DNA of 64,000 nt. Origin: a phage. This document shows, one piece after another, positions 27,405 to 28,435 of this stretch; within the stretch, counting starts at the first letter, position 1, and each line of letters starts with the position of its first letter. The stretch is taken from sequence record OZ336095.1. One strand, 5' to 3'. Position numbers and translations under genes: made by a program. Below the pieces are notes generated by a model. It was given only the letters and a program-made list of their open reading frames with translations, searched no databases and was not told the DNA's origin.

Positions 27405-27845
27405 TTAGAAAGGTTTTCTACGTTGCTTGTTAATGTTAGCTTTCATAGCAGCTAAATGGTTTTGCTGTTCAATCAGTCGTGAGCGTTCTTGATGGCTAAG
27501 TGCCATAGTGTTCACATTCTCAATCGCTTGAGTGGCTTGCTTTAAAGCACGACCAATCTTACCAGACATTTTACGTTTTGCAATAGTTGCTTGATGTTTA
27601 GGTTCAACCACACGATAGCCAACACCCATTGAAGCAACCAGATAAATCTTCTCTTCTTTAAGAAGCTTTTCAATAAACTTCTCAAGTCGGTTTAGTCGTG
27701 TAAGTGCATAAGCCTTCATTTCATCTTCGTACTTAACAATGTCACCTTGATAAGTTGGCTTCACAATACCTAAGAAGGTGTCCATCTCAGAATGTGATAC
27801 AGTGTCACCGTAACTGAACTTTGCTGCTAATGCTTTTGTATTCAT
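27405..27845 (-). CDS. hypothetical protein (cassette gene 2)
   Basis: 146-aa ORF with basic C-terminal third; own terminator downstream. Confidence 0.4.
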   Translation of the reverse strand: MNTKALAAKFSYGDTVSHSEMDTFLGIVKPTYQGDIVKYEDEMKAYALTRLNRLEKFIEKLLKEEKIYLVASMGVGYRVVEPKHQATIAKRKMSGKIGRALKQATQAIENVNTMALSHQERSRLIEQQNHLAAMKANINKQRRKPF

Positions 27846-27847
27846 AA

Positions 27848-28435
27848 TTAAACGTTACCTTCTGAAATAACTTCTACAGAAAAACGACCAAAGCGTGGAC
27901 GCCAATCACCTACACCACAAAGGTTACCAGCATTTTCCAGAACCATCAAGAGTTCCTCTTTGGTGATTTGCTCTTCATCGAACATCAAACCGAACTCTAC
28001 AGACCAGTCACGGAAGATTGGACGGTAGCTCATAACTCGTGCTGTACCAATCTTAACAGACTTAGCATAGATAAAGTCTGGATTCTTAGCAAGTTCTTGT
28101 GGGTTTGCTGGACAGTTCTTGATAGTCATTGGGAAGACTACATCTGTCAGCATAATGGCTCGGTCAATTACCTTACCAAGTTTGTTGAGTTTTGCACCAG
28201 ACTTGATACAAGCCTCAATCATCTCACCGTTCATAACAAAACCTAGCTGCTCATCGTAGTAACAAGAGGTTACCAGTTGGCTTTCTGCTAAGAGCGCATA
28301 GTCTTCGTCAGTCTTTTTACGCTTACTGGACAGAGACTTGTGATATTTTGTCAGAGGGTTTAATGGGTCTGACAGTGTATCGTTATGGCTCAGGAAAGGA
28401 CGAGTACCAGTGATTTTGATATTTAACAGTTTCAT
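27848..28435 (-). CDS. hypothetical protein (cassette gene 1)
   Basis: start taken at ATG 28435 with GGAG RBS (track start 28450 is GTG); 195 aa; no motif recognised. Confidence 0.4.

Follow-up and report, generated by a model that had tools for sequence, protein, structure and literature searches.

The locus analysed here lies at positions 27,405 to 28,435 of a phage DNA sequence of 64,000 nucleotides (nt) (OZ336095.1; the whole stretch is called the window below, and the features of the locus are all on its minus strand). It holds two genes, here named vipr and vap1 after their counterparts in phage SUSP1, with tracts of GGYNN repeats on either side, and it is compared throughout with the VIPR (Viral Interference Programmable Repeat) system. 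The genome in the window is that of a Felixounavirus, and positions 26900-29100 match 244 phage records, nearly all from Felixounavirus or close relatives, the best match being Escherichia phage allfine with 97% identity. As in SUSP1, the locus has the DNA ligase gene on one side and the thymidylate synthase/DHFR block on the other. In the GenBank records of relatives, both genes are called 'hypothetical protein' wherever they are annotated, and the intergenic repeats are at most given as 'repeat_region'.

VIPR was described in two preprints of 2026 with SUSP1 as the model, as a phage-encoded relative of CRISPR in which guide RNAs built of GGY/NN repeats bind and silence target DNA (bioRxiv 10.64898/2026.04.26.720920, 10.64898/2026.04.26.720927; PDB 36pp). 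According to these preprints, the Vipr protein polymerises on guide RNAs (vrRNAs) of 9-16 GGY/NN units with one protomer per unit, and the SUSP1 vrRNAs have been shown to be expressed, to be bound by Vipr and to silence their target. Protection is enhanced by vap1, and the natural guides of the SUSP1 clade, with targets known for 20 of 41 vrRNAs, aim mostly at a satellite phage. VIPR has been proposed to be older than the RAMPs of CRISPR systems. The main text of the CRISPRi-ART paper contains no fitness data on the two SUSP1 genes.

Two genes, four repeat tracts and their transcription signals

The first gene, vipr (27848-28435), starts with ATG behind a GGAG ribosome-binding site and encodes a protein of 195 amino acids (aa), assigned as a minimal RAMP protein by homology and predicted fold. 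The protein is identical to SUSP1 gp039 at 191 of 195 positions (98%), and its family profile, searched against the PDB, matches one solved structure (36pp_D, 'SUSP1 Vipr protein', E = 1e-81). The wider family comprises 520 matches that are 37-50% identical and come from phages, Actinobacteria and Proteobacteria, and a C-terminal G-loop motif is nearly invariant among 34 Vipr homologues. The AlphaFold2 (AF2) model has a mean confidence (pLDDT, predicted local distance difference test) of 94.2 and, when compared with the PDB by Foldseek, its top 40 matches are Csm3/Cas7 RAMPs of type III and type VII CRISPR effectors, with E-values of 4e-5 to 1e-3 and template modelling (TM) scores of 0.41-0.54. 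As modelled, Vipr has a minimal RAMP fold made of a single RRM core, a glycine-rich loop and a thumb. The residues published as contacts of GGY, of the skipped base or of the non-target strand were compared, and H17, K33, R39, E71, M72, K82, G87, K88, R138, C173, D177, W178 and R179 are all conserved; position 175 is V both here and in the SUSP1 sequence of the PDB entry, and the preprint text gives T175.

The second gene, vap1 (27405-27845), encodes by homology the VIPR accessory protein, of 146 aa, which is identical to SUSP1 gp038 at 145 of 146 positions (99%) and has 234 distant relatives in a HMMER scan. Its AF2 model (pLDDT 96.3) shows a winged-helix-like N-terminal half, in which a helix-strand-helix arrangement and a beta-hairpin precede long C-terminal helices. 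The weak fold matches of Vap1 in the PDB are enriched in winged-helix DNA binders; they agree with the 'predicted DNA-binding' label that the preprint gives to Vap1, without proving it, and on this model Vap1 is a probable DNA-binding protein. The Vap1 profile also matches the gene directly 3' of vipr in two distant loci, L039 (E = 1e-42) and L040 (E = 1e-17), and the order vipr, vap1 and same-strand GGYNN tract is found again in an environmental phage contig and in the chromosome of Rhodococcus globerulus. In six further distant viral loci (Vipr identity 37-40%) a vap1 homologue was not detected, and same-strand GGYNN tracts accompany vipr in four of these six (L033-L036). Scans of both proteins with Pfam and PADLOC gave nothing usable (the sole match, to HpHbR at E = 0.023, is due to chance), and PHROGs places both only in families of unknown function; the statement in a sequence-only reading of the window that neither protein shows a recognisable motif thus agrees with these scans and with the GenBank annotations.

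The repeats form four vrRNA genes, two upstream of vipr and two downstream of vap1, all on the vipr strand. Each is a tract of units followed by a pseudoknot tail of 34 nt. The gene of vrRNA a (28666-28774) has 15 GGYNN units (28774-28700; tail 28699-28666) and the NN string AG GA CG TA AT CC AT CG AA AC AC AA AA AG AT. That of vrRNA b (28512-28600) has 11 units (28600-28546; tail 28545-28512) and reads AA AA GC CC CG AA GC GA AT AA GT. On the other side of the two protein genes, vrRNA c (27253-27341) also has 11 units (27341-27287; tail 27286-27253), with the string AC GC TA AA CT AG AG GA TT AA GC, and vrRNA d (27111-27209) consists of 13 perfect GGTNN units (27209-27145; tail 27144-27111) with the string CG TT CG TT AG GT TC AT GT TT GT AT AT. 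Of the 50 units, 8 start with A or T rather than G (five in vrRNA a, two in b and one in c), and AGT also opens the final unit of b and c, next to the tail. A phase-aware scan of the 64-kb window found ACCNN runs only at 27127-27231, 27274-27358, 28543-28602 and 28727-28781, and GGYNN runs in the opposite orientation were absent from it; this clustering of phased tracts is far from chance. The sequence-only reading had seen phased tracts and repeats on both sides of the genes, and both are real; the period is 5 nt on the minus strand rather than merely 10 nt, and the tracts number two upstream and two downstream instead of one per side.

The RNA of the tracts is predicted to be unstructured (z-scores near 0 for a, b and c), with a weak tendency to fold in d (z = -2.0). 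The pseudoknot of the tails is supported by covariation: in 14 distinct tails taken from this phage and 18 relatives, pairing holds for 96.4% of cells, against 31-41% in slid controls, and 9 of the 10 pairs have changes on both sides. Rfam holds no family for the vrRNA region. A CRISPR repeat-spacer array is absent from the locus, whose guides are discontinuous and repeat every 5 nt.

Upstream of vrRNA a lies a sigma-70-type promoter sequence of the operon, TTGACA-16-TATACT (28848-28875), which fits the consensus at 11 of 12 positions, is located ~400 nt from the ATG of vipr and, judged by its sequence, would serve the operon. On the 3' side of vap1, a terminator-like hairpin with a UUCG loop, AGCCTCTTCGGAGGCT, followed by a T-run (27378-27393), is kept in relatives. 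The near-consensus promoter, the repeat-rich stretch of ~400 nt, the two minus-strand genes, the UUCG terminator and the second repeat region all stand where the sequence-only reading had put them, and its description of a self-contained, separately promoted module of the early region is borne out. Since a pair of vrRNA genes lies beyond the terminator-like hairpin, the functional unit is larger than 27405-28435; it extends over ~27111-28875 and so reaches past the UUCG terminator.

Guide decoding and the satellite island

The NN dinucleotides were decoded by the published rule, in which one target nucleotide is skipped after each dinucleotide, and candidate satellite loci were scanned with mismatches allowed at skips of 0-3. 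The satellite was located through a phage gene. According to a figure legend of the preprint, the satellite baseplate protein is 72% identical to a SUSP1 protein whose gene directly follows that of the tape-measure protein, and the copy of this gene in the window (13488-14285) was used as the query. It is up to 94% identical at the DNA level (bases 22-565) to a satellite gene that is annotated as 'phage baseplate protein' and carried by 474 of 5426 complete E. coli genomes (~9%). The satellite copies examined (L004-L012 and L037) are islands of ~10 kb at no fewer than three chromosomal sites (mdtG, a DUF72 gene and the yciI-tonB interval) and encode recombinases, small hypothetical proteins, a tape-measure protein and a baseplate protein; their tape-measure and baseplate genes are related to those of the phage itself.

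A guide-target signal appears at skip 1 only, and skips of 0, 2 and 3 give at most 21/30. Guide a matches 27 of 30 positions in an unselected satellite (L008) and 28 of 30 (93%) in two others (L011 and L037). Its sites are codon-aligned, with the skipped bases on wobble positions, and fall within an open reading frame (ORF) of 185 aa that heads a run of small satellite genes. Guide c matches 21 of 22 positions (95%) in L037; its site lies ~50 nt upstream of a gene for a 236-aa protein, which is followed by the tape-measure and baseplate genes. The target of guide c is supported by the presence of a guide a site in the same satellite, 1.5 kb away. Guide d matches 21-22 of 26 positions (22/26 = 85%), again codon-aligned, in the large serine recombinase gene, with L012 among the best-matching loci; on these sequences the assignment of the recombinase (integrase) gene as the target of guide d is borderline. 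When the order of the units was shuffled 200 times, the maxima were 24/30 for a, 18/22 for c and 20/26 for d. The target of guide a is safe on unselected loci.

The matches are to the satellite. Within the window, the best skip-1 match of a guide to the phage itself is 63-73%, with none reaching 80%, and the guide genes match themselves at skip 3 only; the host core genome is not matched by the guides. One satellite locus, L004, has no convincing guide site. The function is of a conflict type rather than a part of core replication, as the sequence-only reading had supposed. On the VIPR model, the guides of this phage would repress the satellite.

A satellite also carries a vrRNA of its own. 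In the locus L007 (E. coli MS1737), positions 7212-7276 on the minus strand of the locus hold 13 GGYNN units with a phage-type tail, GGGTGGATGGTAGTAGCCACATTAAAAATCTACC, and the annotation of the locus as retrieved lists no vipr gene. Some satellites use the Vipr of a phage, according to the VIPR preprint, and by analogy the vrRNA of L007 presumably borrows the phage protein.

Hairpin modules, variation among relatives and neighbouring features

A conserved module, CATCACTTAAGAG...TTTTTAAGTGATG, is present on both sides of vipr and vap1, and every vrRNA has such a module directly 5', in the window as well as at the same positions in the loci L013-L030. Two forms sharing the core GTCTTtAAGAGGGTyTTTTAA can be distinguished. 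Form 1 is a hairpin of 13-18 bp, GCATCACTTAAGAG...TTTTTAAGTGATG, and is found 5' of vrRNA a (28775-28818; -18.6 kcal/mol, z = -5.1), of vrRNA b, there with an inserted loop (28601-28665; -24.2 kcal/mol, z = -6.1, folded as 28601-28666), and of vrRNA d (27210-27252; -22.2 kcal/mol, z = -7.0). Form 2, CCTTTTTAAAAGGTCTTTAAGAGGGTCTTTTAATGA, precedes vrRNA c (27342-27377), directly next to the UUCG hairpin. In the part of the VIPR preprint text that was available, hairpin modules before vrRNAs are not discussed. Tentatively, and with the balance of probability on the other side, the modules might be an undescribed functional part of VIPR arrays, acting either as a signal for 5' processing or for the filament boundary, or as a recombination site of vrRNA cassettes. 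As a 5' signal, the module could possibly be the counterpart of the 3' pseudoknot. Cassette movement, on the other hand, would explain the complete turnover of guides next to vipr and vap1 genes that stay at least 97% identical, as well as the occurrence of guide c in five phages whose guides otherwise differ.

In 18 relatives, Vipr is at least 97% identical, almost all NN strings are different, and the number of vrRNAs varies from one to three per side. Guide c (27287-27341) recurs unchanged in four relatives (L016, L018, L019 and L020, at 2595-2649), where the other guides differ, which would fit a movement of individual vrRNA units as cassettes. Guide a, in turn, is present with point variants in two relatives (L021 and L023), and at the two positions where guide a mismatches the satellite L011, at least one of these variants has the L011 base. 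Guide variants that track satellite variants argue for ongoing selection, the signature of an arms race.

Exchange is also seen on a larger scale. The block of ligase, vipr and vap1 (27405-30133) shares 85-90% identity at third codon positions with the corresponding block of SUSP1 (NC_028808.2, 28031-30611; L038), whereas its neighbours (DHFR, DNA polymerase and a regulator) share 53-66%; nucleotide identity between the two phages is ~82% genome-wide. These sequence comparisons suggest a recent horizontal exchange of the ligase-vipr-vap1 block between genera. The modular exchange that the sequence-only reading had proposed is thereby given partial support; a swapping of cargo is not supported, the two genes being constant in the 18 relatives.

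Two neighbouring regions deserve mention. Between the ligase gene and the VIPR promoter, an ORF for a strongly hydrophobic peptide of 48 aa (28883-29029, minus strand) is also present in phage KhF3, and a 'StbAB binding site' noted in the GenBank record of KhF3 falls within it. On the other side of the locus, the next gene has a promoter-like site of its own, TTGACA-17-TATTTT (27091 to 27063), bracketed by a 19-nt inverted repeat (arms 27064-27082 and 27092-27110, 89% complementary) that may be an operator; the gene behind this site (26635-27018) begins with a signal-peptide-like sequence.

Interpretation of the locus and relation to known systems

The locus is very probably a type II VIPR system of a Felixounavirus. 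This assignment rests on homology, predicted fold, conservation of contact residues, anatomy of the vrRNAs, covariation of their tails, hypervariability of the guides, guide-target complementarity and the lack of self-targets. By analogy with the published system, the promoter at 28875 would drive the two upstream vrRNAs and then vipr and vap1, with two more vrRNAs past the terminator-like hairpin, which may likewise be transcribed and processed. Each vrRNA would be a run of 11-15 GGYNN units capped at its 3' end by the pseudoknot. Vipr, as a single-RRM RAMP, would bind one protomer per unit, with GGY buried and NN exposed, and the resulting filament would pair with double-stranded DNA by reading NNxNNx..., with one base skipped per unit, so that an R-loop triplex would block transcription. 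Vap1, the probable DNA binder, would enhance silencing, and guides a, c and d would be aimed at the ~10-kb satellite island in E. coli chromosomes.

Several observations weigh against this interpretation or narrow the evidence for it. On the protein side, the Vap1 model has no significant Foldseek match in the PDB (best E = 0.56). A promoter-like site for the two vrRNAs located 3' of the terminator-like hairpin was looked for, and none was found. In vrRNA a, 5 of 15 units lack the first G (AGT four times and TGT once); since this vrRNA still gives the best target match (28/30), the first G of the unit seems tolerant to change. The tails used for covariation had been pre-filtered for at least 9 of 10 pairs; the covariation is carried by four main tail types, and all four are present in the unfiltered listing as well. 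For the targets, L011, L012 and L037 came from BLAST searches with synthetic perfect targets, and their scores are biased upward because the loci were picked with idealised sequences; in the loci not selected in this way, the shuffle maxima are surpassed by guide a (27/30) and guide d (21/26) alone, and the 22/26 of guide d would fall short of significance if whole collections were searched. For guide b, none of the ten satellite loci contains a target, nor is its exact pattern found in genome, metagenome and viral contig collections; the exact full-length skip-1 patterns of guides c and d are likewise absent from the viral contig collection. Matching of exact patterns is, however, too strict for guide targets, and it was the mismatch-tolerant scan of satellite loci that gave matches.

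Some of these points bear on the strongest of the alternatives, a VIPR system that is partly decayed or redirected, in which vrRNAs a and b are non-functional or aimed at unsequenced elements and only some guides act. The altered units of vrRNA a and the failure to place guide b in any collection searched speak for it, and the preprint itself has targets for only 20 of 41 clade vrRNAs. It is nevertheless rather unlikely, as vrRNA a gives the best target match of all, its point variants in L021 and L023 track satellite variants, and a target missing from databases is weak evidence.

A second alternative retains the picture drawn by the sequence-only reading, that of a conventional host-takeover or anti-defence cassette in which the repeat RNA is a regulatory leader and the repeats are recombination borders for the swapping of cargo. 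The position in the early region with its own promoter and terminator fits such a cassette, as do the signs of block exchange between phage genera. What makes it very improbable is that the cargo is constant in 18 relatives while the repeats vary, that PADLOC and Pfam reveal no anti-defence signature, and that the guides match a satellite, with no match to the host core genome or to the phage. A synteny comparison had been proposed as a means of finding different cargo between the repeats of relatives; what varies in the 18 relatives is instead the NN content and the number of repeats. The tracts are guide-RNA genes; they do not passively bracket the two genes, nor do they form a 5' leader or mark recombination borders, and in place of host takeover or anti-defence in the usual sense, the locus points to RNA-guided DNA binding aimed at a satellite.

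Less credible still is the idea that the repeats are DNA elements (origin iterons, a partition or centromere site, or bent DNA) bound by both proteins in double-stranded form. It would account for phased, intergenic tracts that adjoin replication genes (ligase and polymerase), for the partition-type 'StbAB binding site' note in the KhF3 record and for the resemblance of the Vap1 model to winged-helix DNA binders. Against it, units that follow each other every 5 nt lie on opposite sides of the B-DNA helix, and the tracts are always on the coding strand of vipr, here and in distant homologues. A fixed GGY with hypervariable NN is the reverse of what is expected of a protein-binding iteron, and the NN strings, once decoded, correspond to sequences of the satellite. 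Vipr is a RAMP whose structure has been solved with RNA bound; the KhF3 note refers to an 11-mer in the small ORF that is unrelated to the tracts; and neither protein matches partition or initiator families in Pfam. TRAP-like attenuation, G-quadruplexes and origin iterons were dropped in view of the homology to RAMPs and the matches between guides and targets.

As a type II VIPR system, the locus can be set beside the one in SUSP1, with which it shares Vipr (98%), Vap1 (99%), genomic position, GGYNN vrRNAs, tail types and the class of satellite target. The two differ in their genomes (Suspvirus for SUSP1, Felixounavirus here), in layout (one vrRNA upstream and three downstream in SUSP1, two and two here) and in their guides, none of the four described here being shared with SUSP1. 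The relation to class 1 CRISPR-Cas systems is more distant. Vipr resembles Cas7, Csm3 and Cmr4 in its predicted RAMP fold with RRM core, glycine-rich loop and thumb, and in both backbones one protomer covers a short RNA segment and the thumb periodically interrupts guide-target pairing. In contrast to class 1 systems, there is a single RAMP gene here, with no repeat-spacer array, cas1/cas2 or other cas genes (PADLOC and Pfam). The codes differ as well, since Cas7 filaments pair 5 of 6 nt, whereas VIPR has an RNA period of 5 nt of which 2 pair, with the target skipping 1 nt in 3. Moreover, VIPR is phage-encoded and aimed at another mobile element, and its adaptation machinery is not evident. 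A likeness of another kind is offered by TRAP (trp RNA-binding attenuation protein), an oligomer that reads an RNA triplet repeated every ~5 nt with variable spacers of 2 nt. The likeness is one of resemblance only, in the reading of spaced triplets: TRAP has an unrelated fold, its spacers carry no information, it has no nucleic-acid target, and no homology was found with Pfam or Foldseek.

The function of the locus is therefore not undescribed, as the sequence-only reading had thought it to be, since the two 2026 preprints and PDB 36pp cover VIPR; with proteins 98-99% identical in sequence to those of SUSP1, the locus belongs to a system that has been described, and its function is, by this homology, already known. 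What is added is a guide-target map for this phage and the undescribed modules between vrRNAs. If the modules do move cassettes, such movement could amount to an 'adaptation' of VIPR without Cas1/Cas2-like machinery. The choice of this locus from raw sequence also serves as a positive control, since that reading alone singled out the one locus of the 64-kb window that holds a new class of system. In common coliphages used for typing and biocontrol, two 'hypothetical proteins' and ~800 nt of 'repeats' can now be named, and the likely targets of the guides can be placed on a satellite found in ~9% of complete E. coli genomes. VIPR represents RNA-guided recognition of DNA with a non-contiguous code, through which phages carry programmable weapons against their own parasites.

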